In this document: positions 29,750 through 56,222 of the stretch, one piece after another
Position numbering within the stretch: the stretch's first letter is position 1
Layout: each line of letters starts with the position of its first letter
Virus record (IMG/VR): IMGVR_UViG_3300045988_113168
Source of the DNA: a virus
Reading direction: 5' to 3' (one strand)
DNA: 64,000 nt
Made by a program: the position numbers and the translations under genes
The notes under the pieces: generated by a model
What the model was told of the DNA's origin: nothing
The model's database searches: none
What the model saw: only the letters and a program-made list of their open reading frames with translations

Positions 29750-29759
29750 GCGGCGCACC

Positions 29760-30080: not shown

Positions 30081-30145
30081 AATATACCTCCTGATAAAAA
30101 TAAAAGACCCCGAACACATCGTTCGAGGTCATGAATCACGTGATC

Positions 30146-30649
30146 TTATTCTTTTGGTTTCAAAAAACCATTAGTGCGTAGCATTTCGTCATATACGCGC
30201 CCCACGTTCTTGATGGCGAAGGGCATCTTGTTGTTCTTGTAGTTGGAATGAGTCTTACAATAATCTTCATACTTCCCAATGACATCAAGGATATCATCAA
30301 AGTCCTCTTCGGTGTGGCCGAGCCCGCGAACAAGCTCATTATTGAAGCGCAGCACCTGACTACGATAACCGTCAGCTTTGGTTTCTTCACCCTTTTCGAT
30401 GTGGTTATCTAGCTTTTTACGAGTCTCTTCTTGCTCGGAGCGAATATCTTTGAGCTCGGATTTAGTTTCCTTGATCTCGTTCATCACACCGGCATTCAGG
30501 GCGTTTCCAATGTGAGTGGCTACCTAAGACCACGGATTGATCTCGATTTTAGAGACTTGTATCACTGACATAACAACGGCGATCAATCCGCCGCTCCCGG
30601 CCATCACTGAGCCGAGATGATTTAGGAAAAAATTCAATAATTCGTCCAT
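30146..30649 (-). CDS. Lysis-cassette membrane/coiled-coil protein containing one in-frame TAG (30524-30526)
   Basis: ATG 30649 preceded by GAGGTG. The 41-codon TM-containing N-part is in frame with track ORF 30146-30487, separated only by TAG. The downstream ORF has no clear SD of its own. Confidence 0.65.
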
Positions 30650-30680
30650 ACGATTTTAATCACCTCGATTCTTTTTTGTA

Positions 30681-30709
30681 TTGACAAATTTTGCACATCA
30701 TGATATAGT
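30681..30709 (+). promoter_or_regulatory. Strong promoter antisense to the late operon
   Basis: TTGACA, 17-nt spacer, TGaTATAGT. Confidence 0.5.
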
Positions 30710-30715
30710 AGTGCT

Positions 30716-30820
30716 ACAGCATGATTTACTTTCGTCGAGCAAATTATGTGTTACCTACTCTAATATGTATGTGGGGAGGAGGTCCTTAGCCGAAAAGCTG
30801 AGGGCTTCTTCCTTTTTATT
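30716..30820 (+). ncRNA. Candidate ~105-nt antisense sRNA
   Basis: Bounded by the promoter at 30681-30709 and a plus-strand terminator (stem 30784-30790/30797-30803 followed by a T-run). No SD-preceded ORF inside. Confidence 0.4.
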
Positions 30821-30965
30821 CGGACGGTGTGTCTGTTGTACTTTGATTTTGTTTCTGCAGTTCTTCTTTGATGGCGGTCAGTTGTTCATCGATGCCTTGC
30901 AATGCTATTACGATTTGCTGACCAGTCTCATCAAGAAGAAACGGTTTTAATATTTCTTGAGACAT
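30816..30965 (-). CDS. Small coiled-coil protein (49 aa)
   Basis: Below the track cutoff. ATG after AAGGAGGAA. MSQEILKPFLLDETGQQIVIALQGIDEQL... Confidence 0.55.
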   Translation of the reverse strand: MSQEILKPFLLDETGQQIVIALQGIDEQLTAIKEELQKQNQSTTDTPSE

Positions 30966-30979
30966 GGTTCCTCCTTAGC

Positions 30980-31246
30980 TTAAAGATACTGATATCCTTC
31001 AAACCACAATAAGTACCCCTCATTGCGATTGCTTGTAGAAGATAGTTTTAAAGTATTATTTGAATTATAAGATACACTTGAAGAGCCGATATTTGTTGTA
31101 CAGCCTTTGACAATTTTAATTTCATTGATTTTGAAAGAAGGACATTTAATAACTATGTAATTTACATAGGAAGGAATAGTAAGATTTATAGAAATACTAT
31201 TATTAACATAACCATATCCAGTCCATACTAATTTATCTACAATCAT
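30980..31246 (-). CDS. Stand-alone paralogue of the fibre C-terminal tip domain
   Basis: DKLVWTGYGYV...WFEGYQYL resembles the C-terminus of 31262-32770 (GKLVGTGRVTY...YIEAYQYY). Confidence 0.55.
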   Translation of the reverse strand: MIVDKLVWTGYGYVNNSISINLTIPSYVNYIVIKCPSFKINEIKIVKGCTTNIGSSSVSYNSNNTLKLSSTSNRNEGYLLWFEGYQYL

Positions 31247-31261
31247 TTCATCACCTCTTTA

Positions 31262-32770
31262 TCAATAATACTGATAAGCTTCAATATAATAAGTGCAAGT
31301 ATCACTTTTATCGGCGGCATCGTAACCAACACAAGTTATTTTGCCGTTTGTATCAAAAGTTATTCTTCCATAGTACCGACTATCATTAGTATAAAGAATA
31401 GTTCCAATAACCATTTTTGTATTTATGGGAACCGAATAATAACTGTTCCCGGAAACGCCAACTATTTTAATGTAATCGCTTGTGGACGGAACGACTAATG
31501 TGCCATCGCTATTATAATTATAAGTCACTCGACCGGTTCCTACTAGTTTCCCTTCACTGTACATCGCTTTCTTTAACAGCTGGTCAACTTGTGCTTTTGT
31601 GTATAGGTCTGGCCTCCCGCTCACATTATTCCAAGCAACAGAATTAGCTACGTCAGCAATTGGATGATAATTGTCCGTATAAATCCGTTGCCAGCTGAAC
31701 CAATTATCCGTCGTATCTCGTAAAGCCCTTGTCCAAAGTCCACGGCCACCTGTCCATTCTCCACAGAGCTCTACTGTGCCACCTGCTCCACAGCCAAATC
31801 CAATTGTCGAAGTGTAAGTGGTAGGCATCCCATTATGAGCAGAAGCATTTGAATTGTAAGAATAGACATTGCCGTATGCTTGAGTGCGACCAGTTTGAGC
31901 ATTTTTAGCACCAAGAGAATTTATAGAAGTGTGTGTATGCCCAGCTTGCGCAAACTGACTCTTATTTACCGCTCTCAGTTCATAACCGTTCCAAGCAGCC
32001 AGCCACGTATAATCAGTATAGTTCATACCAGATTTGGAATAAGCAAAAGTAGTAGCCTTGGAATTGTTGGAATCGGCAACCTTTTTTGCAGTATCGACCG
32101 TTTGTGCTCCAATCGTTGCCGAAGTGATAATTGTACCAGCTTGTGCTGGAAGGTAGACTTGAATTGCATTGTTCGTACCAGCTTTTTTATCAGTATCTTT
32201 TGTATAGTCAAAAATCAGTCTTTCATCACCGTATGTGCCAATCGTCCACGCACCAGATGGTGTCTTTTGTCCTACAACAGGATGGTAACCAGAACCTGTA
32301 CCACTACTTGGTCCATACACAATGGCACTATCTCTATCGTTAATCCAAGAACAGCCGGCATTTCGTTTGATTTGGCCGCTCATTGTGCCACCACTTAATG
32401 GTAAATAGGCATGTGTATGATTCGCAGCAGCATAACTACCTTTTGGTTGATATACACTGTCTGCTTTTCTTTTAATATAGCTCCAAAGTGCGCTCATTGG
32501 GCGTCTATGGTAAGAGGTAGTCGTGGTGCCGCCACCTACATACTGAGATATATAAAAATCAGCGTCAACAGGAACGGATCCACCAGTTGTAAGCGTGTTT
32601 ATCATTGCACTTAAATCGTGTGTATGCCCTGTATTGCTTTTCCCAGCCAGCTTTCCATCCATTTCGGATTCCGTATAATACCGTTCATCGTGGGTGTGTG
32701 ACTTCGCGGCAAAAATACTTTTTAATCCACTGAAGAAATATTGAAATCCTTCAAAATCTAAAATCGCCAT
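31262..32770 (-). CDS. Tail fibre protein
   Basis: Repeated HTH(D) motifs (SHTHDERYYTESE, GHTHD, NHTHAYLPLSGG, GHTHTS), as in phage fibres. RBS AAAGGAGG. Confidence 0.7.
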   Translation of the reverse strand: MAILDFEGFQYFFSGLKSIFAAKSHTHDERYYTESEMDGKLAGKSNTGHTHDLSAMINTLTTGGSVPVDADFYISQYVGGGTTTTSYHRRPMSALWSYIKRKADSVYQPKGSYAAANHTHAYLPLSGGTMSGQIKRNAGCSWINDRDSAIVYGPSSGTGSGYHPVVGQKTPSGAWTIGTYGDERLIFDYTKDTDKKAGTNNAIQVYLPAQAGTIITSATIGAQTVDTAKKVADSNNSKATTFAYSKSGMNYTDYTWLAAWNGYELRAVNKSQFAQAGHTHTSINSLGAKNAQTGRTQAYGNVYSYNSNASAHNGMPTTYTSTIGFGCGAGGTVELCGEWTGGRGLWTRALRDTTDNWFSWQRIYTDNYHPIADVANSVAWNNVSGRPDLYTKAQVDQLLKKAMYSEGKLVGTGRVTYNYNSDGTLVVPSTSDYIKIVGVSGNSYYSVPINTKMVIGTILYTNDSRYYGRITFDTNGKITCVGYDAADKSDTCTYYIEAYQYY

Positions 32771-32786
32771 TCAATAACCTCCTTTC

Positions 32787-33698
32787 TCAACTAGCCAGAA
32801 TTTTATCTATCTCTTCTTCGGTGATGCGGTCTACAGTAAATCGCTGCCCAAGAGCATCCCATTTAGTGCCATCCCATGCATAATTCATACCATCAGCCAC
32901 ATCGTAAACATCACCAACGATTTGACCCTCAGTAGGAAGGTCCTCAATAGAAGGCACGCTGCCTTTATAACGATAAACAGCAACAATGTCAGCCTTGAGC
33001 GCATAAGAACTAGAATCTGCAAAAGCATCTAATTTCTTTTTATCATCCGCAGTCATAAGTCCAGCATCTCGCTGAGTGACTTCTTCATATTGAGTGTCTT
33101 TTTCTGGAATGCCGAGTGCAGTAATATCTGATTTAATGACCTCATTTATCTCTGATACGTGGCCATTCAAATCGACAGTGATTTTATAAAACCCATTGAC
33201 GTGAGAGGTATACATCGGGTGTTCATAATGATTTGCGTTGTCGTCAATGCCGTCAAGTTTCTCTTTGTCCGTAGCGCTCATCAAACCCGCAATAGTAGAG
33301 GTGGCTTCGTTATACTCATCCCGGGGAGGGACACTCCATGAGCCATCACTTCGAAGGAATCTGTTTGGAGCGCCTTTTTCGGGGGCGGGGACAAGGCCAC
33401 TGTGACCGTCAGAAACACCAGTAGCACCAGTCATGACCGGACACGAGCTGTTCAGTAAAACAAGGTTGCCACCACTGCTCATATAGAGCTTATCTGGCTT
33501 TAAAAAGTAGATTTTATTGGCGAGAGGAGCCAAGGGAAGTTCGCTCACAACCTCCAAATCGCTACCGATTTTTACATGAGCTGCAGTAGAATCTCGATAG
33601 GCGTTTCCGGTGTCAAGACAGACGATAAGTTGTCCATCAATCACTGGAGTCGTGTCGAGCTGAGATTGGTTAATCTCTAAAAGTGATAATTTTGACAT
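32787..33698 (-). CDS. Tail fibre protein
   Basis: ATG 33698 after AAGGAG. GLVPAP...FLRSDGSWSVP and AGLM[ST]A.DK.KLD repeats typical of fibre proteins. Confidence 0.7.
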   Translation of the reverse strand: MSKLSLLEINQSQLDTTPVIDGQLIVCLDTGNAYRDSTAAHVKIGSDLEVVSELPLAPLANKIYFLKPDKLYMSSGGNLVLLNSSCPVMTGATGVSDGHSGLVPAPEKGAPNRFLRSDGSWSVPPRDEYNEATSTIAGLMSATDKEKLDGIDDNANHYEHPMYTSHVNGFYKITVDLNGHVSEINEVIKSDITALGIPEKDTQYEEVTQRDAGLMTADDKKKLDAFADSSSYALKADIVAVYRYKGSVPSIEDLPTEGQIVGDVYDVADGMNYAWDGTKWDALGQRFTVDRITEEEIDKILAS

Positions 33699-33724
33699 CG
33701 TAAGCTCCTTTTCGATAAAAATAA

Positions 33725-33767
33725 CCCTGCCAGCCGTACAGAGCCGTAGCACCATAAGCCAGCAGGG
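33725..33767 (-). terminator. Terminator or attenuator hairpin after 33776-34864
   Basis: 10-bp stem (2 G-U pairs on the minus-strand RNA) followed by TTATTTTTA. Confidence 0.45.
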
Positions 33768-33775
33768 GATATAGA

Positions 33776-34864
33776 TTATTCAGCCAAATTCTTCCAAGTG
33801 AGCGCGCCTTCGACATTTTTCACACGAGTATCCATTGCAGAATTCAGACCATCAGAGTACACCTTAGAATCTGCCAATGCTTGATTTGCCTTTACCGTGG
33901 CGTCCTTTGCAGCCTTCTCTACAGCATCATCATGAGAAGCAGTCAGTTCCGCATGAGTGACTTTTTCATTCCAAGCAGTACGTTCCGCAGCGGTAATATG
34001 TACCGTAGTATCGCTGGTATGATTAGTCAAAGCATCCTGTACAGCTTTAACTTTTGAATCAACCTCAGCCTTGGTATAAGCATCGGGCACAGCCACATAC
34101 AAACCATCCTCTTCAATCACGATAGAATTGTCTGCCTTAGTAGAGACCTTGACGTTGACAGAGATTCGATTATCATCCGAAACAGTAACCTCAGCCGTAG
34201 AAGTAGCAACACCGACATAAATATCAATCAGAGAACCAACGGGAATCTTGATAACCTCACCAGTCGTAATAGTCAGCTCGATATTCTGGGTTGCGTTATT
34301 ATACACGCCACGCTTGACAACCAGATCCTTACCTAGAGCAATAGTTAGCTCGTCACCGCCAAACACGGGCATCTTGATAGTGCGGGTGTCCGGGTCATAA
34401 GTGGGCGCGTGGACAACACCAGTCAGAGTGGTCTTGACAGGCTCATCGTTCTTGGAGACACTGATAACACCATCGCTATAAGTAACGTCACTGACATACA
34501 AGCCCTTCTTGCCCTCGACCTGCTCGATCTTAGCCTGTACATAGTCTGCAACAGCCTTGGTAGTAGGCATATCATCATTGGTAGCACCATCTGCCGGAAT
34601 CTGAGTAACGGTTTTCTTATTCAGCTGCAGAAATTCAGTGCCGTTCCAGATATGCATGGTGTAATCGGTCATGCGGAAATAAATAACACCCTGTACCTGA
34701 TTGGCCTCGGGCAGGACGCTTACAATCTTGGCACTTTTACCATATTCCTGATTGCCTTTATAAAACTGAAGAGTATCAGTCAGAAAATATAGAGTGTCGT
34801 TGTCACGAACATCCAGTGCATCAAACCGGGCTTTCGTGCCATACGCAAATTTTACTTCTGCCAT
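33776..34864 (-). CDS. Tail fibre/structural protein
   Basis: 362 aa. RBS AAGGAGGAAG. The C-terminal HTSDTTVHITAAERTAWN motif resembles fibre proteins. Confidence 0.6.
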   Translation of the reverse strand: MAEVKFAYGTKARFDALDVRDNDTLYFLTDTLQFYKGNQEYGKSAKIVSVLPEANQVQGVIYFRMTDYTMHIWNGTEFLQLNKKTVTQIPADGATNDDMPTTKAVADYVQAKIEQVEGKKGLYVSDVTYSDGVISVSKNDEPVKTTLTGVVHAPTYDPDTRTIKMPVFGGDELTIALGKDLVVKRGVYNNATQNIELTITTGEVIKIPVGSLIDIYVGVATSTAEVTVSDDNRISVNVKVSTKADNSIVIEEDGLYVAVPDAYTKAEVDSKVKAVQDALTNHTSDTTVHITAAERTAWNEKVTHAELTASHDDAVEKAAKDATVKANQALADSKVYSDGLNSAMDTRVKNVEGALTWKNLAE

Positions 34865-34879
34865 TGTCTTCCTCCTTTT

Positions 34880-35245
34880 TTAAAATTCAGTCCATTGAAA
34901 ATTCGTAGGTGCGATGTAAAAAGGCTCAACTAAAAAGCGCCCCGTGGCCGCACTTTTCTGTACAACCCACGGAGCGTATTTGCCCTTCTCATCTTTTATC
35001 ATAACTGTTTGCCCGGCATAAGTGGCCTCGTCATCATTTAAAGCATCGTTTGCCGCAGAGACCGTTTCAAAAATACGAGTGCGCGGAGTAATCGTCTGTA
35101 CCGACAAATCGTCTCGCACGTACATGAATTCCGAAGTGTCCTTTGTAATGACGAGGTCTTTACCGTCCAACAAGCCGAGGGCGATAGCGGCCTCGACATC
35201 TTCGGCATTACCATAGCCGAGTTTTGAATATTTTGCTTGTGCCAT
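34880..35245 (-). CDS. Structural protein, unknown role
   Basis: RBS AAGGAGG. 121 aa. Confidence 0.55.
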   Translation of the reverse strand: MAQAKYSKLGYGNAEDVEAAIALGLLDGKDLVITKDTSEFMYVRDDLSVQTITPRTRIFETVSAANDALNDDEATYAGQTVMIKDEKGKYAPWVVQKSAATGRFLVEPFYIAPTNFQWTEF

Positions 35246-35272
35246 CGTTGCCTCCTTATAGAAGCGGATGGC

Positions 35273-35908
35273 TTAGAACGGAACCACCCGCAGAGAACCG
35301 TCATCCGTCTCGACAGTTTCGGTTGTAATCTTGATAGCATTACCGATCGGCTTGCCATTAGAGGTAAGCTGGATGCGGTGCTCATCATCATAGGTGATAT
35401 TGTCGGCCTTGTTATCCAGACTAGTATTCAGACGGTCAACCATGGCCTTATTCAGAGCCTCAAGAGCGATAATACGCTGGTCAAGCGGGCTCAGTGCTTC
35501 ATCTGGAATCAAATCAGACCACTTACTGATGGGAATAATATGTACAACGCCGGGGCCAGCCTTGCGCACGCGCTGAATCGTCTGTCCTTCAGAGTTCATT
35601 TCGACATGAAGGAAGGTCAGTTGGAACTCAATGTCACCAGCCTCACTGGTCAGGCCCGTATCAAAGGGAAGAAGATACTCCAGTCGGTTCTTATACAGAT
35701 CTTTTGATTTTTGTAGAATTTCAGTTTTATAGCGTTTGCTCACAGGCAAAACATACTCCAGCATAACGATATAATCGCTAATATCTACACCCTTGTAAGT
35801 CTGGTCGGCAAGAAAGTGCAGATTATCCACCAGCTTGCTCCGCTGCATGATACGCTCAGTCAGACTTGCGGTGATAGTGTTATCCTCGTTAATCAAAAAA
35901 GTATACAT
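35273..35908 (-). CDS. Structural (baseplate/fibre-associated) protein
   Basis: RBS AAAGGAGGTG. 211 aa. Confidence 0.55.
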   Translation of the reverse strand: MYTFLINEDNTITASLTERIMQRSKLVDNLHFLADQTYKGVDISDYIVMLEYVLPVSKRYKTEILQKSKDLYKNRLEYLLPFDTGLTSEAGDIEFQLTFLHVEMNSEGQTIQRVRKAGPGVVHIIPISKWSDLIPDEALSPLDQRIIALEALNKAMVDRLNTSLDNKADNITYDDEHRIQLTSNGKPIGNAIKITTETVETDDGSLRVVPF

Positions 35909-35909
35909 A

Positions 35910-36059
35910 TCACACCTCCTTTCCGTTCACGATGTACAGGTAATCATCCAAAGAGATCTTCTTGTCTTCAAGCAGGCCCTCCACAAACTTATCCTGTACC
36001 ATTCCACTCTTATAAAGTCGATGCATACTCTCGACGAACTTAGTGAAAATCTTCTCCAT
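35910..36059 (-). CDS. Small protein (49 aa)
   Basis: Below the track cutoff. TAATG overlap upstream and TGATATG downstream. RBS AAGGAGG. Confidence 0.5.
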   Translation of the reverse strand: MEKIFTKFVESMHRLYKSGMVQDKFVEGLLEDKKISLDDYLYIVNGKEV

Positions 36060-36373
36060 TACAGCAGACCTCCTTGAATTAACGTCAGTGTATAGGCATC
36101 AATAATGGCCTCAGGAGTTGTCCCTCCCAAGACCTTGATTTGGTCATATTCGTATTTATCAATCGGCTCAAGCGTCACGGTGTCATATTCTGGGGAAGGA
36201 ATCAGGTAATAGCCGTCAACGTGCCAGATATACTTACCGTTGCTGCTGATAACGCCCTGTGCTTCATCTTCGGTACAGTTCACCATAATATCGTGCTTGG
36301 GCTGATATTTTACAAAGTGCAGACGGTCAAGAGCATCGATTACTCGACCATTTTTAAGTACCTTATAGTACAC
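36059..36373 (-). CDS. Hypothetical structural-module protein
   Basis: GTG 36373 lies 5 nt after GAGGAGGTGA. The track ORF extends to GTG 36394, which has no SD. Confidence 0.5.
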   Translation of the reverse strand: MYYKVLKNGRVIDALDRLHFVKYQPKHDIMVNCTEDEAQGVISSNGKYIWHVDGYYLIPSPEYDTVTLEPIDKYEYDQIKVLGGTTPEAIIDAYTLTLIQGGLL

Positions 36374-36386
36374 TCTCGTCACCTCC

Positions 36387-43160: not shown

Positions 43161-43184
43161 TTACTCACTCCTTTTCTTATATAA

Positions 43185-45698
43185 TCAAGTGGTCGATGGG
43201 TTATTGTTCTTATTCACGTCAGAGCGTAAATCAGGGAAGTATTGGTCAAGCATCCAGTCTTGATAGAGGTTATATTTACTTTCCTCTCCATTGTGGCCTA
43301 CAATATAGGGGTAATAGGGGAAATAGCGGCTCATTGTCAGAGACATTGTGCCCTCTCCAAGATTGATACTAAAGTTCTTAATGATCCAATCGACCGGAGT
43401 TTTACTGTTCAAATATTTTGCTGCATATTGAATTTTTTCGTTTACATCGAGCCACGGAACTAACAAAATAGGCACCACCAACCCATCGGTTAATCGTGCC
43501 TTCTTCCATAATTCATATTTAGCAACTTCCATTGCCTTTTCATCCGTGGTATAGTTGTCATAGTCTCCGCCCGAAAGTATTTCATTGCGACGACCAATTT
43601 TTTCAATTGAGAATTTTGCGTTATACAAATCATCGATATTGTCTGGATCAGTCATGCAGACATATTCAAGATTATCGCAGTTTTCTTCTTTTTTTTCTGC
43701 GGCAAGTTTATCGCCGGTCGGTACAGTATCTACCAATTTGACCATAGCATGAGATTGCTGCTGCCCAATAAAATAGAAGTGCTTTGTATCAGGGAACCAC
43801 TGAATGACATAATACTTTCCCGCTTCCATGATAGAAGGTTCCTGCTCAACGTCGTTACCATCAGCGTTAGGAACAGATTTATAAAGCAGGGAAGTTTTTG
43901 TTGTAGTCTTCTGTTCAGTCCCGCCACCTCCATCGGCCTTAACTTCTGTTGTCACAAAATTAACAATTATATTCAAGGTTTTGCTTGTGATTTTTGCAGG
44001 CATGATAAACGATATATTCGCTTCATCATCAACAGCAAGTTCTTTTACGGTCAGTGTAAGAGAATTCTTTTCGGAAGAATAAGTTGCAGTCGAAGAATAT
44101 GCGTCAGAATCGATTGTAGCACCAAACACTTCAACACAGTTTCGAACCGTAGAATAATCCACTGTGGCCGACTCACCATCTGCCGTCACCAAACTTGCAA
44201 ATAAATCTGGGTCGAGTACAGGCGGGTCATCAAATCCACTCGGAATTTCGTGACATACGAACACGTCATCATCGAAATACATCTCAAATGGATAGTAGAG
44301 GTCGCGCAACTCAGTCAAAATCTGCCACAAAGTTGTACCAGTCTCATATTCCAAATCGTAGGGAACATTACGCGTCCAATAATCAATCACGCATTTGCTA
44401 AACTCGCTCATCGGCTGTTCAGTTAAGACTGTTTTAATAACAGGAGCGATACGTGTTCCTTTGTTGATTTTTGTTTTTAGACCAGTCAACTGTCCAGCCA
44501 AATCGCCATTCAGTCGCGCCACAAGATCTACGCAAGAGCATTGCACTGTATTCGTAGTTGCGTTATATGTAAATCCATTTGACGAGATAGAAAAGCAACC
44601 TTGATTAAACCAGTGAACGTCTTGATTTTTAGAAAATACATTTATACGTTGCACAGATACTTTTTCGAATTCTTTATTGAACGACTCATTAAGCTTCTTC
44701 TTCGCTTGAATAACCTCGTCTTGAACATCGTGCATAGAATAACCAACATAAATGCTAGTAGTACCGTATTCTTCTTGAAGCTCTTTTTCACTCCAACCAG
44801 CAATAGCACTGACATCAGCAGCAGATAACATACTACCGTTTACTGTTTGTCCCTGTATTGCGGCAATCATATTATGAACCTTAACAGATTTTCCCCAAAG
44901 TGTCATAGAAATACCTGTTTTATCTTTGAGTAGAATCGTAGCCGGATCGGTAGATGTACCAATAACTCTAGAAAGGTACTTGGATATTTCTGAATTACAT
45001 AGAGGGATTAAATCACCATCATCAGGTTGAAAAAGAGGAGTGTATGCAATTTGTAGACCATTAAATTTATCGTCGCAACCAAGAACAGTAGAATAATCTC
45101 CTTTATTGATTATGGCTTCCGGGTCTGGTTCAAATGCTTTTTTGAATTCTGAAAAAACTAAAGAACTAAGCCATTTCCCTATGGTATTTACAAAAGTCGT
45201 CTCACCATTCATCTCCTTTACAAATTTAGAATAGTAAGACATATTGTCATCGTTCCATTCAATCACGCCACGATTGATGTTGTCGATATTCCCGTATTTT
45301 GCATGACCTTCTTGAGTGATTTTTGAAACTAAAGCATTATATTCTGCTTTGGCTTTTTTATATCCAGCAGATTCTTTTGTCTTTTTTTCAAGTTCTGGGT
45401 ACGAGAGGGAAGTAGTTTTGGCTCTTCCTTTTAGTCCGATAAAAACACGAACATTTTTGCTTATCCAGTCCTCCTCATCAAAAGCGGAGACAACACTCTT
45501 TTTGCCGAGATACAACGTAGTATTAAAGGTGCGACGAATGTCTGACTCCGAATCAACACTTACAGTTCCATCAATCGCAATGCCTTCCAAAGAATCTACA
45601 GTTGCGAAATCTTTGTCCAATAAATCAATGCGACAATATATATGAGGAGAATGGCTTTTTAAAAGAGCGAGGTCTTCATCTGTAGGTAAGTACTTCAT
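43185..45698 (-). CDS. Tal-like tail tip/baseplate hub protein
   Basis: 837 aa. RBS GGAGGT. ATGA overlap with the upstream Dit-like gene. The call rests on position and size. Confidence 0.55.
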   Translation of the reverse strand: MKYLPTDEDLALLKSHSPHIYCRIDLLDKDFATVDSLEGIAIDGTVSVDSESDIRRTFNTTLYLGKKSVVSAFDEEDWISKNVRVFIGLKGRAKTTSLSYPELEKKTKESAGYKKAKAEYNALVSKITQEGHAKYGNIDNINRGVIEWNDDNMSYYSKFVKEMNGETTFVNTIGKWLSSLVFSEFKKAFEPDPEAIINKGDYSTVLGCDDKFNGLQIAYTPLFQPDDGDLIPLCNSEISKYLSRVIGTSTDPATILLKDKTGISMTLWGKSVKVHNMIAAIQGQTVNGSMLSAADVSAIAGWSEKELQEEYGTTSIYVGYSMHDVQDEVIQAKKKLNESFNKEFEKVSVQRINVFSKNQDVHWFNQGCFSISSNGFTYNATTNTVQCSCVDLVARLNGDLAGQLTGLKTKINKGTRIAPVIKTVLTEQPMSEFSKCVIDYWTRNVPYDLEYETGTTLWQILTELRDLYYPFEMYFDDDVFVCHEIPSGFDDPPVLDPDLFASLVTADGESATVDYSTVRNCVEVFGATIDSDAYSSTATYSSEKNSLTLTVKELAVDDEANISFIMPAKITSKTLNIIVNFVTTEVKADGGGGTEQKTTTKTSLLYKSVPNADGNDVEQEPSIMEAGKYYVIQWFPDTKHFYFIGQQQSHAMVKLVDTVPTGDKLAAEKKEENCDNLEYVCMTDPDNIDDLYNAKFSIEKIGRRNEILSGGDYDNYTTDEKAMEVAKYELWKKARLTDGLVVPILLVPWLDVNEKIQYAAKYLNSKTPVDWIIKNFSINLGEGTMSLTMSRYFPYYPYIVGHNGEESKYNLYQDWMLDQYFPDLRSDVNKNNNPSTT

Positions 45699-46357
45699 GT
45701 TGTACCTCCTACCGGCAAATATTCGCTCAGTCCATTACTGTACATATCATCTTCACTCTCAATAGATCCGATTTCGACAAAGTTGAAACTCAACGTACCT
45801 TTGTCATAATGCTCAGAACAACTTGTAGTAACACTGCCATTTACTCCAATTAGCCACTCACGCCCATCAAACATTTTGAGAACTTTTGCGTCTCCGTTAG
45901 TAAGCCATGCTGAGATTTCTTTACGGTAATCATTTCCACCGTCAACATCAAATTCATCTTGAGCCATATCGAATTCAATACCAACACCCGAAAAATCACC
46001 AGAATAATAGTTCGCTTCATTGCCAAAATACAGATAGGGGTATTTGCTACTCATGGTTTCGACGATAGAAGCAGTGCGTTTTAGCTCAACACTGTCTACC
46101 TTTGGCTCAAGAAGAATGTGATAAGATGTTTCTCCATCTGTAATAATTGCGCCATCAAATTCACTGACTACTATCTTTTTAACATAGCCCTTTTCAATAG
46201 TATTAACAACAGGAGACACAGCATATTCATAAGGCTGTTTGCGCCCAGCCGCATACCAGTCAGTGTGTTCCATTATGACATATCCGGTATTTTCTGAATG
46301 CAATTTTATTCCATGAATAGTATCAGAGAATGGTTTAGTGACGTTCTTTTCGGGCAT
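45695..46357 (-). CDS. Dit-like distal tail protein (possibly the C-terminal part of a TAG-readthrough fusion with 46466-47551)
   Basis: 220 aa. Only a weak AGGA upstream. In frame with the upstream ORF across two TAGs. Confidence 0.55.
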   Translation of the reverse strand: MPEKNVTKPFSDTIHGIKLHSENTGYVIMEHTDWYAAGRKQPYEYAVSPVVNTIEKGYVKKIVVSEFDGAIITDGETSYHILLEPKVDSVELKRTASIVETMSSKYPYLYFGNEANYYSGDFSGVGIEFDMAQDEFDVDGGNDYRKEISAWLTNGDAKVLKMFDGREWLIGVNGSVTTSCSEHYDKGTLSFNFVEIGSIESEDDMYSNGLSEYLPVGGTT

Positions 46358-46465
46358 GACGCTAATCCTAAAATACGCGATAATATTCTTATAATTTACA
46401 TTCCAAGATGATTTATTCTAAGTTCCAACATTTCGTGTCTTGTTAAGCATTGCAGAAATCGATTT

Positions 46466-47551
46466 CTATAGGTTTTTCATAAAAGAACTAAGAGAGGAAA
46501 AACGATCCAATGCTTCATTATAGGTATATTCTTTTCCGTCGGAATAATATTTAATGCTTGTTTCCGTATAGCCTAAGAATTTTTGGTTTTTGTCATATGC
46601 TATAATTCTAGCAATATATCCATCAGCCGATATTTCGACTGACTTTAAATCACTTGCCGGGATTAGATTAGTGCTCATTGAGATGTTATCTGTAGTAAAT
46701 ACTCCACTTTGACTAACATAGCCATTTGACCAGTTGGGCAATAAGAGCAAATCGTTTGATAAATCAACTTGTTTTTCATAAATAGTCATCCATGTGGTAT
46801 CTAAAGGCTTTTTGCGCTTAAACCGAAGATGAGTAATGTCACTCTTCACATTGGCTGGATATTTTGCAAAAAGGTTAATACAACCACGCCATTTATCGTT
46901 TCCTGCATCAAAAATTACTCCATCAATTTGTTCACTATATTTCGTCTTAAACTGTTTGAACCCAGTATCAAGCTGGTAACCTCCAATTGATTCTGCTTTA
47001 GCACGAACATAATAAACGCTATTATTGTCAAGGCCATCAACATAAAAACTCTTCATAGAGTCACGGTGATAAAAACATTGTGACTTTTTGATTTCGTTTT
47101 TATTAGAGTCATAAAGATAATATTCATATCTATTGATAACTTCACCCTCAGCCGTTTTGTAGGTATAATCACAATCAAAAGAGTATGAAGGTGTAAAGAT
47201 AATTTTAGAAGAGGAAATGTCGGAGAATGCCCTGAATTTAATGGAAGGTTTCTCGTGACAATAAAACAGAATCTTGTCACTATATTCGCTGAAAGTGTTC
47301 GTACCAGTTAATCTGCAACGAATCATGATATAATAAGGGTCATGCTGATTTACAAGGACCCCACCTTTAATTACAAATTGTCGAGCTAGGCCAGTTCCAG
47401 TGGGAGCTACTGTGCCAAATTTATAAACAGTGCTATCTTTTGACTTGAAGACGATATAGGCAACTAAGTCAATATCGGCATATGCTCCGAACTGGAATGA
47501 AGCGTCTTCGTTAGCACTAAATACATTGATTTTTGATAGAATTGGTTTCAC
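46466..47551 (-). CDS. Tail structural protein ending at TAG 46466-46468
   Basis: GTG start after GGAGGTGA. 361 aa. Confidence 0.6.
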   Translation of the reverse strand: MKPILSKINVFSANEDASFQFGAYADIDLVAYIVFKSKDSTVYKFGTVAPTGTGLARQFVIKGGVLVNQHDPYYIMIRCRLTGTNTFSEYSDKILFYCHEKPSIKFRAFSDISSSKIIFTPSYSFDCDYTYKTAEGEVINRYEYYLYDSNKNEIKKSQCFYHRDSMKSFYVDGLDNNSVYYVRAKAESIGGYQLDTGFKQFKTKYSEQIDGVIFDAGNDKWRGCINLFAKYPANVKSDITHLRFKRKKPLDTTWMTIYEKQVDLSNDLLLLPNWSNGYVSQSGVFTTDNISMSTNLIPASDLKSVEISADGYIARIIAYDKNQKFLGYTETSIKYYSDGKEYTYNEALDRFSSLSSFMKNL

Positions 47552-47566
47552 TGTATCACCTCCAAG

Positions 47567-48865: not shown

Positions 48866-48949
48866 TTTCTTTCACCTCCAAGAAAAATATAAAAGCCGAC
48901 CCGCTGGGGAAACTCAGTGGTATCGGCATTGTGTTTTTATATCCTCTAT

Positions 48950-51900
48950 TTAATTTCGCTTACTCATTTTTTGAGAAAGTTTGTTGGGAAGATTGCGGAC
49001 AATTTCGTTTGCCAAATCTTCTGCTCCACCAACAGGGTTCTGAATAACAATATCTCCAATGGAAATATCAATATTAGAACCGCCGTTAGAAGATAGTGAA
49101 GCCGTTCCGTACTTAGACATCTGATCCTGGAACCAAGCATCTGGATTGCCACCCATCTCGAAGAGACGAGAAGTAATATCTGCAGGAACGACTCCATCGC
49201 CGGTTTCAAGATAAGTATAACGTCCAGCTTGCGGTTGACGAACCAGAAGCTCAGAACCTTGCTCGTCAACATTATACTTGCCGGATTTTTGAATGCTTCG
49301 AGAACCAGAAGCTTTTTTACCAGTGATTTTTTCTTTAATTTTGTCAACAAAACTCTTTTTCTCAGAAGAACTACTGGAACTATTAGAAGATTTGCTAGAC
49401 GAAGTAGAAGAACTCTTGTCTTTATCCCGAGAACTACTAGAAGAACTACTCTTACCCGTAACTGCATTATAAGCACTCTGAACGCCGTTCTTAATACTAC
49501 TAACAATATTAGAACCAGTCTTCCATGCAGAAGAATTAGTGATTTTATCTTTGGTGGAACTTATAGCATTGTTTACCTTACTTCCTACCGTAGAGTTGTC
49601 CCATTTCTCTTTGACATTAGAAGCAATTTCTTTAGTCGTAGTTACTAATCCACTGACAGCGTTGTTTACTTTGCCGCCGAGCCAAGAATTGTTCCATGCG
49701 TTTTTTGCACTACTAACTGCGTTGCTTCCAACTTCATAGATGTCTTTACCAAGCTCTAACAAGCTCTTACCGCCAGAAACAGTCGTGGGAGTACCACTGC
49801 CGCCACCAGAAGACAAACTACTCGAAGATGTGGAACTATTGCTGGTAGTATTTTTGGTAGTAGGAGTTGTCTGACCTTTATCGTACAGATCGTTTCCAAT
49901 CGTACCAAAACTATCACGAATAGAAGAAATAGTGTTATCGCAACTCTTAGTGATGCTATCATAAGCTTTCCCCATGACCCACGTAATATTTTCACTAAGA
50001 TCGATAGCACCGGGCTCAACATTCTTCCAGGCATTTGCCATTTGGTCAGGGAGAACTTTATTCAAAGTCTCTTCACTCTTGGATTCGATTGTACTATATG
50101 CGCCATTGATTGTGCTTTGAGTATTATCGGCCAAGTCACGGACACCGCTTTCGGCCATGCCCCAGCTGCTATCGAAACAAGCTCGCATATCATAGAGCAT
50201 CTTTTCGGTATCACCGGTGGTATCAGCCCAAGCTTTAGAAATAGTAGACTCCGTTTTAGCACTCAGGTTGCGGATACCACCACCACACTGATTCCAACTA
50301 TTCTTCATCTTACTAGAGATGGAATCCATTGCATTAGAACAGCTATCTTTCATAGAATTGAAAGAGTTCGCCATTTTATTAGCGTTAGACTCACTCATCT
50401 CGTCAGTCATAGATGCCATTTTGTTAAAACCAGCAGTATATGTGTTTTGCATTGACTGGAACAGTTTTTTCGTGATACCCTCGACCTGTTCTGCGTTCAG
50501 TGCGGTATTGTCTCCGATAGCGGCATAGGTATCTTTAACCAGCTTCTGCATATTGCTATACATTTCTTTACTGGTTGCATCAATCTGATCGTCGCTCAAA
50601 CCAACCTCTTTTGCCATATCCTTCCATGTCTTCTCAAACTGAGATTTCATAGAATCAAGCTGGGCAAGTGTGTTGGATTTGGAAGAAGAAATGAGATTGT
50701 CAAGAGGATTACCTGTACTACTATTACCAAAGCCAAAGAATTTACTAATTGAATCCTTTATTAAGCTTCCGCTATTTATTAAGCCTCCGCCGTTTATTAC
50801 GCTTCCGATATTCTTTATCTTATCAAACCATTTCGAAATCGAAGAGTTTTGACCAGAAGAGTTTATAGTGGACTTGGTTTTATCTGCGAATGTAGTAAAC
50901 TTTAAATTCAACCCGCCTAGAGTCTTAACGCTCTTTGAAAGCAGCGTAGGAATAAGGCCGGTCTTATTATCATCACGAATATCGTCAACGGCCTCAACTA
51001 CTTCATCAACTTTAGAGTCAATGGCAGTGTTTTTGCGAGCTTGAGGCGCAGAAGTAATAGTCGTATATCCGCTGGAAGCAGCAGAGTTGCGAGAGCTAGG
51101 TATTTTAGAGGCTACGTTCTTGACCCAGCCGATAGGATTCTTGGCGATTCCCATTAAAGTCGCGGTTTGTTTTGCGGGGATAACTCCGTCACCTTTTTCG
51201 AGTTGAGTCAGGCGTCCCTTCTCGGGGGAGCGAACGATTATCTCTTCGCCTTCCTCATCGACATTATAAGTACCAGCCTTTTCGACTTTCTTAGTACCTT
51301 TAGCAAATCCAAACAGTTTACCAACCCAGCGAATTGGAGCAGTCACAATGTGTCCGATTGTACCAAGTAAGCCGCGTTTCTTTGTACCATCGCTAGATGT
51401 GCCACCAAACAAGAATTTTCCAATGCCACTAACGGCTTTAGTGATCGTTTTGCCAATACTCTTAACTATTTTACCAAGAGTTTTGCCAATACCAGTTACA
51501 GCTTTCCCGATAGTGGAACCGATTTTTGCGAGACCGTTTGTAAATGAGCCGCCACCGATTGCACTGACAGCAAGCGTGCCGCCAAGGAGAATCGTACCGA
51601 TGACAGGAATATGACTGACTGCAGCCGCAATAGTTCCAGCGACACCAGTACCACCTGCAGTACCTACAGCGGCAGTTACCGTTCGACCAATTCCTTTGAA
51701 AATACCAGCAATACCAGAAAACAGCTTGGTTCCACCCAATGTAGTACCGATGCCACCGAAAATTGAGCCAAGCCCACCAACCGCTTTTTGGGCAATAGAT
51801 GCGACTCCACTGAATCCCTTCTGGAAGATTGACATTAGACCGCCACTGCCAGAGAAAATTCCCTGTGCTGCAGAGACTACAGTCGTTTTTACATTGCCAA

Positions 51901-54900
51901 GAGATTTTACAATAGCCTGTCCTAGTTTAGAAATCTAACTAGTGCTCTCTCCAAGGAACCCTTTTGCTGCAGCGTACTTATTAGAGCCTCCAACGCCAAG
52001 GAAGCTCTTTCCTGCGTCCAAGAGGCGTCCCCAGAATCCTTTACCAGAACTCTTATCAGAGAACGTACCAACCGCACGCTGCAGACGATTCTACAGACCC
52101 GTAATTCCACCGTTCTGAGTAGAACCATTCAGATTGCCAAGCACGTCTCCGAGCTTAGTCAGTGTATCAATCAGTGTCTCAAGCTTGGTGATAACATTAG
52201 AAACATTAGTTGCTCGCTGGACCGCCTTCATATTGGAGACAACAGAGGCCATAAATCCATCGTAGTGACCTTCCATCTCTGCAAAAGTCATAGCCTCGAA
52301 CTGAGACGTATATTTCAGTTTCTTCTGATAGTCGTCCCAGCTTGTGCCAATAAGGTTAGTGGCTTCCTGAACCTTATCTTTGAGCTTGTTCAGCCGGTCG
52401 ATTTCTTCCTGTTTCTTATACTCACGGCGTTTGCTGTTGAGGTCACTCTGAGCGTCACGAACTGTACTTGCATCAGCCTCCCACTCGTAACCATTCTCGC
52501 CATAGACGCGAGTGGTCTTATTGGCCTGTGCTTTCGCGAGAGCATCCTCGGCTTTTTGCAGTTCAATCGCACGCTCTTGAGCATCATTCTGCTCATTCAG
52601 CGCGTCGATACGTTTGTCGATAACATCAATCCATGCATCACCCTGAATCTTCAGGTCGTTGGACTTTTTATCATTGAGCTTATTGAAAATATCAAGCAGT
52701 GAAGAGAAAAGGTCTTTAAGGTTAGAGATGACAGACTGTAACTTTTGAGCCTCAGTACCCATCCCCTTCATATGGTCGGTAACATCCCAAGTACCATTTG
52801 CTACCTTTTCAAGAATTTCGGCGTAACGATCTCCGAGGTCAGTACCCTTATATGTTTCTGCAAGGACTTTTAGCTGCTCAATGTAAAGGTCTCTAAAGGC
52901 TTCCTTGTTAAAGACGAGTTTCCCGCCTTCTTCTTTAAGGCAAGCCGCATACTTTGGATTAAGAGACATATACTTCTGGATGGTATCTTGACTTAATTCT
53001 CCATAAGCGTTATACTCATCTACAATATCAAACAAATCGTTGAATGCACTCTGGTAGTCATCCATTGAATTATTGATTTTGCTAAGAGTACTTCCGATTC
53101 CGTTAATATAATCCTCAATGCTGAGTGCATTGCTTGCAATCTTATTCTTTGCATCTTCAAAGCCCTTGGCAAGATATGTTCCAGCGGCTCCGCCAGTCTC
53201 CTTACAAGCTGCAATCATCTTGTCGAGACTATCAAGGAACATATCCTTAAAAGCGTCGCTGTTGTAATCAATATCTCCAGTCTCGGGATTCAATGCCCCA
53301 GCGTACTTGTCATTCGTAAACAAGTCTGTGTTATCATATAGGTCACGAATTGCCTGATACTTTTTCTCAACATCGTCAGAATCTAGCAGTCCAAACGGAT
53401 TGTCAATCTTGTTTTTGCTAACATCGGACAGCCCAGAGAATGCGGATTTTATAGCGTCTGTCTTTTCTTTGGCATCTGCCATCGCGGTGCCGTAGCCCTT
53501 GATGGCATCAGTTAACTGCTCAAAAGAAATGGTTTCGGAATCGACACTAGAGTTCAACCAGTCAAGAATCTTCTTCATCTCGCCAGCAGACTTGCCACCA
53601 TCATTAGCTGCATTCGCTTCCTCAAGCTGCGCTCTGACAAAAGTGCGGAATTTTGCGGTATTAAGTTCAAGTTTTCCATTTTGCTCAGTTAAGCAAGCAG
53701 TAAACTTATCATCAACACCGATTAACGACTTCATGGTGTCTGCACTAATATAGCCATATTGGTTATATTCTTTCATCGCTTTTGTTAAGGTATCAAATGC
53801 GGATGCAATATCAGATACAGACTTCGCGGTAGATTTATTGTTCTTGTTGGTCTTATTTGTCGGGAACCCATTAAGCTGATTTGTTAGTTTTTGTCCACCC
53901 CTTAGAGCAGCGTTCATATTGGTGTACAACAGAGAAAGCTGAGTATTTGTGCGATTCGTGATTTCCTCTAGCTTTGCAGGATCTACACCGCGTTCACCTG
54001 CTTTTTCGACTTCGTTCGCAAACTCTTGAGCCGCGCTATATGTAGCGGTTGCCGCAGTAGCATTTTTCAAAGCGGGGAGAAGATTCTCAAGAGCAGTCTT
54101 TTCGGCCTTGGTTTTCTCTTTTAGGTTATCAGTGCTTTCAGCTGTGTCATCGGCAGTAAGGTTTGCAACCTCATGTTGTGCATTAGAAAGAATTGTGGCG
54201 GCAGCTTCTGCATATTCAGCGGCAAGTAATTCGGCATAGCTCTGTTTATTTATCTGGAGCTTACCATTAACAAGCTCAAGGCAATTCAAATACTCGGTGT
54301 TCATCGACAGTAAAGACTGAAGAGAATCGAGACTCATGTAGCCATACTGATTGTACTCTTCCATTGCACTGGTAGAAGCTTTATACGCAGACTGGATTTC
54401 ATCCATTTTGGAAGAAATATCTTCCATCTTCTGTGCGCCAGCAGCCAATGCGTCAACACCATTTGCAGAAGACTGAGCTACAATACCAACTTGAACAAGT
54501 GCTTGGATAAACGCATTTACACCGTTTGTGTCAGCAGAGAAGTCCATGTCGGCCAAAGCTTTACGAAGATTTGCGAGAGCTTGCGCTTGATCATCGGACA
54601 ATCCTTCGTTTGTACCCCACAAGAGTTCATTCAGCTTACTTGCATCAAATCCATCAATCGTATCTTTCAGAGTTTGAACAGCAGAATTTACCTTATCGAA
54701 AGTAAAACTGACATCCATACTGTTATTATTGTCATTCTGCCAAAAATCAACTGCTTGAAGTTTTCTACGAGCATTCGTGTTATTGTTGATGGCATCCGTT
54801 GAGTCATTGTAAGAATTTACATCATTACGGAGAGCAGATTGTTCATCAAGCAAGAACTGATACAGACTATGATACGTTCCACCGGCAGCTCGCTCGGCTT

Positions 54901-55789
54901 CGGTAGTATTATCAATAACATACTTTAAGGCTTTGCCAACTTCGTTGTAATAGTCAACAATAGAATCCGCATCATTTAACTTGTCAGGTCCGTAACCACC
55001 AAACTTATTAAAGACATCAATACCAGCATTTTTAATCTGGTCACCCATATCCATTTCAGGAGCCGACCAAACAGTAAGATAATGCGTCCGATTATTCTTC
55101 TTGGCTGTATCAACAAGCTTGTCGCTTTGAGCATCTTTGTTTTGTGTCAACTCATAACGAGATGCCTCCAACTGCTCCGCTGTAATATCCTGAAGTAAAC
55201 CAAGCTGCTCTTCATATTTACCATTTTGCAGGTCAATCTTACCAAGTTTGTTTTCATCAAGCGTTCCTTGTTCTTTCGCAAGATCAAGAATCTCTGTCTG
55301 AATATCTTTTGCTTGGTCAAAGTCCTCAGTATCCCAACCAGACTTGTCGCCAAGTTCTTCATACGCACTGACTAAGTCCTTTAAGGAGAAAGTTGTATCC
55401 TGTGCTGCGTCCGCCGCTTCCTTAGACTTCGTTGCGACATTTTGCACTCGTTGTGCCGCTTCCGTAATCTTCTTAGTGCCCCAAGAGATGAGCAGGCCAA
55501 TTCCAACACCCAACGCGGCATTGAGCAATAAAGCTCTTGCGCGAAGGGCAAGTAGTTTAAGGGAAAAACCTTCAGTTGCGTCGCCTGCGGCCTCTGTGTT
55601 AGCTTTACTTTGCTTCAACGATGTGATAAAATCAGAAATAGAAGGCTTAGTTCCATCAAGAGAACGCTGATAGGAGAGAATTGCATTTCTGAGTTGAAGA
55701 ATTTTCGCTTTTACGTCGTTCCAAAACTCATTTTTTACACCATCTTCGTCAGCAGTAAACAAGAAAGATAATATCGAAATTTTAATCAT
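48950..55789 (-). CDS. Tape-measure-like protein, C-terminal portion; 2279 codons including two in-frame TAGs (52091-52093, 51935-51937)
   Basis: Track ORFs 52091-55789 and 48950-51835 share one frame (3954 nt apart). The 85 bridging codons have no TAA/TGA and are Gly-rich like the flanks. Long coiled coils, Gly-zipper hydrophobic blocks, and two G.YNVDE.G.E..V motifs. No SD before ATG 55789. Confidence 0.7.
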
Positions 55790-55802
55790 TGAGGAGAGAA
55801 GA

Positions 55803-56210
55803 ATGAATAAAATTCTATACTGCCCGTGGTGTGAAAAATATGTTAAGGGTGTTTGGTATTCATGCCCATTTTGTAGCGCACAAACTATCTATATAAAAGC
55901 ATGGGATAAAAAATCTGACGAAGAAAAGAAAGAATGGTTAAAGAAATTTCCAAAAGTTGACCCACCAAGACCAATCAAAGACAAATCACTACTTCGTGAG
56001 GCGGAAAAATTCGACAAACAAGCTCGTGCTGAACTTGCTCAAGAGGAAGCTCGCCTTGCTCAATACAAACCAACTTGCCCAGTATGCCATTGTCCTGATT
56101 TGGAGAAAATCTCCGGCTTTGACAAGACTGTGGATATAGCGGTCTGGGGCGTATGGTCGAGAAAGGCGCATAAGCAGTTTAAGTGCAAAGCGTGCGGATA
56201 TGAATTTTAA
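55803..56210 (+). CDS. Double zinc-ribbon protein, copy A
   Basis: RBS GAGGAG. CPWC...CPFC and CPVCHCPDLEKIS...CKACGYEF. Confidence 0.65.
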   Translation: MNKILYCPWCEKYVKGVWYSCPFCSAQTIYIKAWDKKSDEEKKEWLKKFPKVDPPRPIKDKSLLREAEKFDKQARAELAQEEARLAQYKPTCPVCHCPDLEKISGFDKTVDIAVWGVWSRKAHKQFKCKACGYEF

Positions 56211-56222
56211 AGGAGAATAAAA

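Follow-up and report, generated by a model that had tools for sequence, protein, structure and literature searches.

Sparse in-frame TAG codons in the late genes of an SPbeta-like gut phage, probably read as tryptophan through a phage tRNA with a CUA anticodon

The 64,000-nucleotide viral sequence IMGVR_UViG_3300045988_113168 from IMG/VR, referred to here as the window, carries five in-frame TAG codons in its tail and lysis genes, raising the question of whether these codons end translation or are themselves translated and, in the latter case, as which amino acid. A first-pass annotation of the window had proposed that TAG is reassigned only in the late genes of a temperate phage, with glutamine (genetic code 15) as the suggested meaning. 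Comparison of the window with related genomes revealed that the TAG codons are internal to single genes, interchange with TGG, track a sound tRNA with a CUA anticodon, termed tRNA(CUA), and occur only downstream of the tRNA array in the late block. Based on these sequence comparisons, readthrough of the TAG codons by the phage tRNA(CUA) is very likely, and the residue inserted is likely to be tryptophan. A sparse TAG-to-Trp reassignment limited to late genes and mediated by a phage tRNA-Trp with a CUA anticodon would thus probably explain the interrupted genes.

Translation of the minus strand confirmed TAG codons at 52091-52093, 51935-51937, 46466-46468, 46418-46420 and 30524-30526, each joining two open reading frames (ORFs) that share a frame and are separated by neither a TAA or TGA codon nor a frameshift; the joined ORFs have 2279, 618 and 167 codons. 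The first two TAGs fall in the tape measure protein gene (48950-55789, minus strand), which has 2279 codons when both TAGs are read through; its translation across the TAGs is continuous and Gly-rich, and its downstream part matches the tape measure families PHROG 167 and 4070. The TAG at 52091 (codon 1233) is kept in all eight close relatives, and its column is an aromatic Phe/Trp position (TTC 28, TGG 16, TAG 15 and TTT 9). In contrast, the column of the TAG at 51935 (codon 1285) is variable (ATA 22, GAG 10, AAA 8, ACA 7, TGG 3 and others), with GAG present in six close relatives.

The third and fourth TAGs lie in a tail/baseplate protein gene (45695-47551, minus strand; 618 codons when read through), the C-terminal part of which matches PHROG 27355. 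The TAG at 46466 (codon 362) is in a linker; eight of eight close relatives also have TAG, and 65%-identical relatives show GAC within an indel-rich stretch. At 46418 (codon 378), TGG (Trp) is found in three relatives (L002, L007 and L011; such labels denote loci of related genomes compared with the window) as well as in the 65%-identical relatives L008-L010, and TAG in five others. The same L008-L010 loci have an uninterrupted 606-codon ORF across both TAG sites. In the Enterocloster phage PMBT24 (L012, 11992-14059), this tail region consists of two overlapping genes in different frames, encoding 381 and 309 amino acids, and the TAG at 46466 sits at the old junction of the two; partial readthrough there could give both a short and a fused tail product.

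The fifth TAG (30524-30526) is codon 42 of a small lysis-module protein gene (30146-30649, minus strand; 167 codons when read through), which encodes a hydrophobic N-terminal stretch and adjoins the holin gene. PHROG 37604 (168 positions) spans the TAG, matching with profile positions 33-60 upstream and 72-168 downstream. TAG was found at this site in 25 of 26 relatives, and the sole relative without it, the 74%-identical L207, has TGG (Trp) in the context INPWSWIATQ; at the neighboring Trp column 40, the count is TGG 24 and TAG 2. The neighboring holin (29760-30119, PHROG 6918) and endolysin (29102-29758, PHROG 894) genes, both on the minus strand at the end of the late transcription direction, have no TAG and end in TGA. 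The alignment of the readthrough proteins to homologues proposed in the first-pass annotation was informative for only part of the sites, indicating Trp at 46418 and 30524 and an aromatic residue at 52091 but no clear residue at 51935 and 46466.

Within the window, the 25 genes of the late (tail and lysis) module (28866-63862, minus strand) comprise 10,378 codons, with 126 TGG and five TAG codons among them; TAA and TGA do not occur in frame, and no further in-frame TAG in a real gene frame emerged when all minus-strand ORFs bounded by TAA or TGA were scanned. As the first-pass annotation had noted, no late gene ends in TAG (TAA 15, TGA 10). The plus-strand early/replication and lysogeny module (103-28810), which encodes a DnaE fragment, the RecD2 helicase, ligase, ThyX, NrdD, FolD and the integrase, is likewise intact under the standard code, as had been claimed: its 53 genes (9,183 codons, 163 TGG) contain no in-frame stop, and one of them has a TAG terminator.

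To count TAG codons across the family, reference proteins were compared by tblastn with approximately 170 loci from approximately 90 related genomes, and the resulting run-through alignments were counted in real gene frames. These alignments contained 42 in-gene TAG columns and, beyond the 5′ leaders that precede true starts, at most approximately four TAA or TGA columns. The TAGs were sparse, strain-variable (differing even between near-identical strains) and almost exclusively in late genes; some relatives carry TAG where the window has sense, for example TGG at 50228 and 44793. Such variation between near-identical strains, together with the ease of the G-to-A change from TGG to TAG, is what might be expected if the genes were simply broken, either by nonsense mutations in a degrading prophage or by assembly or sequencing errors. 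Nevertheless, decay or artefact is very improbable because only TAG is seen, never TGA or TAA, even though TGG-to-TGA is an equally easy G-to-A change. Moreover, identical TAGs recur in 8-25 independent IMG/VR contigs, no frameshifts were seen, the TAGs track tRNA(CUA), and the family is abundant, with genomes of 120-140 kb. The homologues do not end at the TAG positions but continue through them, as shown by the 606-codon ORF of L008-L010 and by PHROG 37604 matching on both sides. The argument of the first-pass annotation that the interruptions are not random decay is thus upheld by the TAG-only pattern, by these two uninterrupted homologues and by the retention of sites in 8 to 25 relatives.

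The proposed confinement of recoding to late genes was also borne out at the family level, with one in-frame TAG in 161,498 early codons of 31 close genomes compared to approximately 2.7 per 7,400 late codons in suppressor-bearing genomes. Even the PhoH and YonJ genes just upstream of the tRNA array had no in-frame TAG among the relatives. However, the window does not resemble a typical densely recoded phage, since it has only five TAG codons in 64 kb at sites that vary between near-identical strains, and calling its genes again with TAG as sense (code 15) changed coding density from 93.97% (code 11) to 94.69%, no clear gain.

TAG is also nearly absent as a terminator throughout the family. 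Among 1,478 gene-by-genome cases, which extend to genomes that lack the suppressor, no late gene ended in TAG; for early genes the figure was one of 818. The sole TAG terminator of the window (20884-20886, plus strand) is followed two codons later by a second TAG (ATT TAG GTG TAG) and is private to this genome; every relative examined terminates this gene with TGA or TAA, in most cases with a TGA at the corresponding place. The suggestion that early genes keep TAG as a working stop codon was therefore not supported. Because TAG terminators are absent even where the suppressor is absent, either TAG was freed before its capture or an old suppressor has undergone repeated loss.

If the TAGs are read through, a decoding tRNA is expected. 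The window itself encodes none, in agreement with the first-pass annotation: ARAGORN found no tRNA, and Rfam no tRNA or other known RNA. In contrast, the phage suppressor tRNA predicted by that annotation exists in the family, in tRNA arrays that lie outside the region corresponding to the window. The arrays of relatives lie approximately 15-17 kb past coordinate 64000, on the strand of the late genes, between a YonJ-like phosphoesterase gene and YonG-like and terminase genes. This slot is at the head of a long co-oriented block of structural and lysis genes and downstream of a YonO-like RNA polymerase gene; a strong terminator-like hairpin follows the array, and a promoter scan around it gave nothing above shuffled expectation.

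ARAGORN alone detected CUA tRNAs in 30 arrays, labeling them tRNA-Pyl; two further types, in which the D stem is short and the T loop reads CUCGAAA or CCCAAAA, escaped it but were recovered when acceptor stem and anticodon loop were searched as a pattern, which raised the count from 30 to 52 of the 74 arrays of related genomes. The type found in the closest relatives of the window is one that ARAGORN missed, and it scored 45.3 bits with the Rfam tRNA model. Independent loci from ENA and Logan had tRNA(CUA) in the same gap in eight of 12 cases. For the window genome, bases 1-14,863 are 100% identical to the Logan contig ERR589592_1656 (137,723 bp), an identity that places the window at positions 14,222-78,221 of that contig, the left flank of which holds no tRNA. 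The genome's own array is expected approximately 15.3 kb past 64000, near 93.5 kb of ERR589592_1656, with a tRNA(CUA) of the form GCGCC...CUCUAAA...GGGCGUGCCA between the YonJ-like and YonG-like genes.

The presence of tRNA(CUA) correlated with the presence of in-frame TAG codons. Among the 52 genomes with tRNA(CUA), 48 had at least one in-frame late TAG in the late genes covered, with a mean of 2.67 per approximately 7,400 codons. None of the six genomes with tRNA-Trp(CCA) had an in-frame late TAG, and only two of the 16 genomes with neither tRNA did, with one each. The co-occurrence (48/52 compared to 2/22) gave P = 3.6e-12 in Fisher's exact test, computed without correction for relatedness.

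The identity of the suppressor was suggested by the tRNA that replaces it. In six of the 74 arrays, the same slot is occupied by tRNA-Trp(CCA), and in an Acutalibacteraceae genome, a prophage relative carries tRNA-Trp(CCA) at the equivalent position, with the terminase gene 2.4 kb downstream. The CUA and Trp(CCA) tRNAs have in common the acceptor stem GCGCC(C/U)(A/G)...(U/C)GG(G/A)CGU, a G1-U72 pair, the discriminator G73 and a CU-NNN-AA anticodon loop, and their other three stems differ by compensatory changes. In the tRNA alignment, 97% of cells were paired and 17 of 21 pairs changed on both sides, values that none of 500 shuffles reached.

The arrays are otherwise hypervariable (at approximately 600-2900 in L094-L173 and 6.4-8.9 kb in L287-L296). 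One slot can hold a CUA, Trp(CCA), Lys(UUU) or Tyr tRNA or nothing, and a second is occupied by a tRNA of the Tyr, Asn or Ser-like kind. Genes of mobile elements, such as a TnpB/Cas12f-like gene (L288) and a GIY-YIG gene (L294), are present in some arrays; in L287, an HNH gene is located upstream of the array. The anticodon loop of a Lys-like tRNA in L096 (2470-2541) is shortened, and this tRNA is probably a pseudo-tRNA, although it scored 43.8 bits with Rfam.

Analysis of the codons that replace TAG in relatives indicated that TAG stands for Trp rather than Gln. When the 42 TAG columns were classified by their most frequent other codon, 20 were TGG columns, three were aromatic Phe/Tyr columns, four were CAG or CAA columns and one was a GAG column, with the rest being variable positions of the tape measure protein. 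Conversely, some genome had TAG at 20 of the 195 TGG-majority columns of late genes (approximately 10%) but at only three of the 366 CAG-majority columns (0.8%), none of the 704 AAG-majority columns and one of the 685 TAT- and TAC-majority columns. With genomes treated as independent though they are related, the binomial P value for the TGG excess was 2e-18 compared to all single-step neighbor codons and 3.5e-7 compared to CAG alone, the other TAG neighbor that is reachable by a transition. TAG frequency at individual Trp columns reached 41/154, 34/154, 29/154 and 27/75, while at Gln columns only one or two genomes each had TAG. Counted as genome-by-site occurrences, TAG was found 111 times at Trp columns, six times at aromatic columns, twice at Gln columns and 20 times elsewhere, and the pattern was the same for every tRNA type. 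Two of the Trp columns, W58 and W65 of the terminase, just precede the Walker A motif (SRNFGKS) and have Trp in nearly all of the prophage relatives with 59-71% identity.

These data bear directly on the proposal that TAG is read as Gln by a Gln-type suppressor tRNA, as in the crAss-like, Lak and phAss-1 phages. Such standard code-15 recoding is the sole amber reassignment described for phages in the literature that we searched, and the four columns with a CAG or CAA majority would be compatible with it. E. coli tRNA-Trp amber suppressors, moreover, are largely charged with Gln. If TAG meant Gln, however, CAG-to-TAG changes would be silent and the most frequent, and the frequencies of 0.8% at CAG columns and 10% at TGG columns do not support a Gln reading. 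In addition, the suppressor has the acceptor stem and the slot of tRNA-Trp(CCA), of which it is a sister, unlike the UGGGG-type, Gln-like suppressor of phAss-1, and most Firmicutes, to our knowledge, lack a glutaminyl-tRNA synthetase. We conclude that the Gln assignment of the first-pass annotation is quite improbable for this family.

The possibility that the amino acid is supplied by host decoding, either as pyrrolysine, taking the ARAGORN name tRNA-Pyl at face value, or by a host amber suppressor, is extremely improbable, although some gut Firmicutes do encode pyrrolysine. Here ARAGORN applied the name to every tRNA with a CUA anticodon, these tRNAs form ordinary cloverleaves and are homologous to tRNA-Trp, and no pylS or pylBCD-like gene turned up in the scanned parts of the window and of the relatives' loci. 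Furthermore, no TAG column is a Lys column (none of the 704 AAG columns), and the presence of TAG follows the phage tRNA rather than a host.

A further alternative is leaky or ambiguous decoding, in which suppression is partial or inserts a mixture of residues, and TAGs are tolerated wherever a bulky residue or truncation is acceptable, acting mainly as attenuators or yielding two products (such as 361- and 618-amino-acid forms of the tail protein). Variable positions account for half of the TAG columns, as this alternative would predict, and the TAG at 46466 coincides with the junction of two separate genes in PMBT24. No release-factor gene was found in the first-pass annotation or in our scans of part of the window proteins, so release factor 1 (RF1) should compete with the tRNA. 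Nevertheless, TAG is strongly over-represented at Trp columns that are invariant in terminase, tube-region and tail proteins, which points to a specific, Trp-compatible residue, and mostly terminated tape measure and terminase proteins would be costly. Thus, leaky decoding appears unlikely as the main explanation.

Several points weigh against a Trp reading by a phage tRNA. Approximately half of the TAG columns are not Trp columns, being mostly the variable tape measure positions, and two of the five window sites (51935 and 46466) indicate no clear residue. Four genomes with tRNA(CUA) show no TAG within the regions covered, and a single TAG is found in each of two genomes in which no tRNA(CUA) was detected. 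The relatedness of the genomes means that the Fisher and binomial tests overstate independence. The tRNA(CUA) of the window genome itself is predicted from its relatives and from the correlation between TAG and tRNA, and array content is mosaic among close genomes. Finally, the CCA anticodon is a major identity element for tryptophanyl-tRNA synthetase (TrpRS), and a CUA variant might thus be a poor substrate or be charged by a different enzyme.

Taking these points together, we lean toward a natural TAG-to-Trp code variant that is at an early, still-varying stage and belongs to an abundant SPbeta-like family of temperate phages whose hosts are human-gut Clostridia. This variant would have arisen by a CCA-to-CUA change in a phage tRNA-Trp, in a lineage already without TAG terminators, and would affect only late structural and lysis genes. 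We propose that the phage tRNA-Trp of the variable array, which appears to have the anticodon CUA rather than CCA in most family members, is presumably still charged with Trp by the host TrpRS and would read UAG as Trp in competition with RF1. With this tRNA present, TGG-to-TAG transitions would be near-silent in genes translated while the tRNA is available, and such changes could accumulate sparsely and differently in each strain, with some becoming fixed. Replication, integrase and lysogeny genes, which must work before or without the tRNA, would stay free of TAG.

The position of the array suggests how the tRNA might be regulated. YonO is the phage RNA polymerase for late genes in SPbeta, and with a YonO-like gene situated upstream of the array, the tRNA may be expressed with the late genes. 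The terminase, tape measure protein, tail protein and a protein of the lysis module would then be incomplete until the tRNA is made, which could protect the lysogen from leaky late expression. Whether there is a regulatory benefit beyond neutral drift is, in our judgment, an even question: the sparse, strain-variable pattern fits near-neutral TGG-to-TAG drift equally well.

Comparison of the window family with published recoded phages revealed both shared and distinct features. The reassignments seen in phages were stated to be TAG-to-Gln and TGA-to-Trp only (Borges et al., bioRxiv 10.1101/2021.08.26.457843), and other papers describe these two as well; the literature searched contained no report of TAG or UAG read as Trp, an absence there that is no proof of absence. 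In the code-15 gut phages (crAss-like, Lak and the Garnet and Topaz prophages; Borges et al., bioRxiv 10.1101/2021.08.26.457843; Peters et al., PMC9523058), as here, structural and lysis genes contain amber codons whereas the integrase and early genes do not depart from the standard code, a phage tRNA(CUA) acts in a standard-code host, TAG terminators are depleted, and a role as a lock on late genes and the lysis/lysogeny decision has been proposed. In contrast, in the window family TAG aligns with Trp and the suppressor is a tRNA-Trp derivative. The recoding is also approximately 100-fold sparser and invisible to coding-density tests, sites vary by strain, and sister genomes without the suppressor exist.

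The TGA-to-Trp (code 4) phages, such as Jade, Sapphire and zeta crAss-like phages, are similar in that a stop codon one transition from TGG has been captured for Trp by a tRNA-Trp-type suppressor in late and lysis genes. They differ in the codon, TGA (anticodon UCA) as opposed to TAG (anticodon CUA); the window family has no in-frame TGA and terminates genes with TGA in the normal way.

Another phage for comparison is phAss-1 ('Phassvirus'; OQ749652, 135,976 bp; Babkin et al. 2023, PMC10607447), a human-gut siphovirus-type phage of the same size that also has tRNA-Sup-CTA genes. It has 41 ORFs interrupted by TAG and 36 tRNAs, and its TAG was assigned to Gln by alignment and tRNAscan (PMC10607447). 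However, one of its two suppressors compared here is Gln-like (UGGGG...), neither resembles the GCGCC... tRNAs of the window family, and its protein similarity to the window is only 21-39% in the first 50 kb. Membership of the window phage in the phAss-1 group was rejected because of this weak similarity and the different suppressor tRNAs. Enterocloster phages are distant relatives of both phAss-1 and the window phage, and the Enterocloster phage examined previously has no stop-codon recoding (Babkin et al., PMC10607447).

A further known group for comparison is that of SPbeta, including phi3T, Brevibacillus phage Sundance, the Lactococcus 949 group and Enterocloster phage PMBT24, which share with the window family the Yon/Yom protein families, a YonO-like polymerase, a size of approximately 130 kb, a temperate life style, and DnaE and nucleotide-metabolism genes. 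PMBT24 differs in having two overlapping ORFs where the window clade has a single tail gene with TAGs. A separate set of phages, 60-67% identical to the window in NrdD (L230-L283), has in-frame TAGs in early genes, opposite which the window residue is most often Gln (nine of 30), with L266, L262 and L276 as examples. The phages of this set resemble ordinary TAG-to-Gln recoded phages, and large gut phages that are distantly related to one another may thus include both meanings of the amber codon.

We know of no NCBI translation table in which TAG specifies Trp. If correct, an amber-to-Trp reassignment would add a new codon meaning in phages and show that the host TrpRS can be co-opted through a CUA anticodon. 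The family would also represent codon capture in progress, with sister genomes that have Trp(CCA) and no TAG, neither the tRNA nor TAG, or tRNA(CUA) and a few TAGs at Trp sites, a graded series within one family that is rarely available for any code change. In practical terms, code-11 annotation splits the tape measure, terminase and tail genes of such genomes, and detectors of recoding based on coding density would miss them, so that sparse recoding may be under-counted. The reading is testable, since relatives exist as prophages in isolate genomes (IOR16 and PM5-7) and, at a greater distance, as cultured Enterocloster phages.

The window corresponds to the early/late half of a temperate, SPbeta-like siphovirus genome of approximately 137 kb from gut Clostridia. 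The description of the phage in the first-pass annotation as temperate, integrase-carrying and Firmicutes-type was well founded. A Tn916-type tyrosine integrase gene (25440-26606, plus strand; Pfam Phage_integrase and Integrase_DNA) is a marker of a temperate life style, and prophage relatives with terminase identities of 59-71% were found in Clostridia genomes, with isolates including Anaerovorax sp. IOR16 (on a 1.36-Mb contig) and Clostridiales Family XIII bacterium PM5-7. Relatives of the window phage also include more than 150 IMG/VR contigs of 120-140 kb each. The loci of relatives encode families named after the Bacillus prophage SPbeta (Pfam YonG_N, YonD_N, YonB, YomW, YomU_Tube, YonK and YonJ_N) and a 927-amino-acid YonO-like RNA polymerase (PF05183). 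These structural families and the polymerase, which are in SPbeta order, lie beyond the window end and are known from the relatives' loci; within the window, affiliation with the SPbeta group is supported by tblastn similarity of an 815-amino-acid protein to SPbeta-group proteins. A megablast search of the tail region against GenBank phages gave no close match.

Some features of the relatives concern genome organization. Nearly all of the relatives' IMG/VR contigs stop 2-4 kb past the small lysis gene (L183-L209), at approximately 26-28.5 kb of the window, a zone (approximately 26.6-28.6 kb) that adjoins the integrase gene and two unannotated genes (27011-28593) and across which the window continues. 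These contig ends would fit a genome or prophage end (an attachment site or terminus), and the window would then come from an assembly that is circular or permuted. In relatives, approximately 1 kb past the right end of the window (L014, 8401-9411), a second gene of the tyrosine-recombinase-like kind (PHROG 1, E = 1e-49) is present on the late strand inside the structural block. In the Logan contig L296 (272-4903), the integrase, a Tn916-type Xis and a FolD fragment are directly beside a shortened YonG-like gene and the terminase gene, with no tRNA array, an arrangement that is either a rearranged or deleted variant or a misassembly. Finally, in several relatives (L247-L252, L268 and L228), the match to NrdD (10847-13057 of the window) has 99% protein identity but spans approximately 3,110-3,210 bases instead of 2,208, which implies a putative insertion of approximately 900-1,000 bp (an element such as an intron, intein or homing endonuclease) that the window lacks.

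The window contains two separate tape-measure-like genes, one encoding the 815-amino-acid protein (61058-63505) and the other being the 2279-codon gene at 48950-55789. The 815-amino-acid protein matches N-terminal and lytic-transglycosylase parts of tape measure proteins (PHROG 4211, 28 and 167) as well as SPbeta-group proteins, while the 2279-codon gene matches later parts of tape measure proteins. The idea that the two represent one tape measure gene split by an insertion was set aside, since SPbeta-group phages have similar separate lytic-transglycosylase/tape-measure-like proteins. Between the two genes lies a variable island (55790-61057), in which three plus-strand ORFs (55803-57209) are found inside the minus-strand late block. 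Positions 56052-59218 have no counterpart in the close relative L014, and the island encodes two proteins with retropepsin-like aspartyl protease domains, one on the plus strand (56223-56663) and one on the minus strand (57265-57759).

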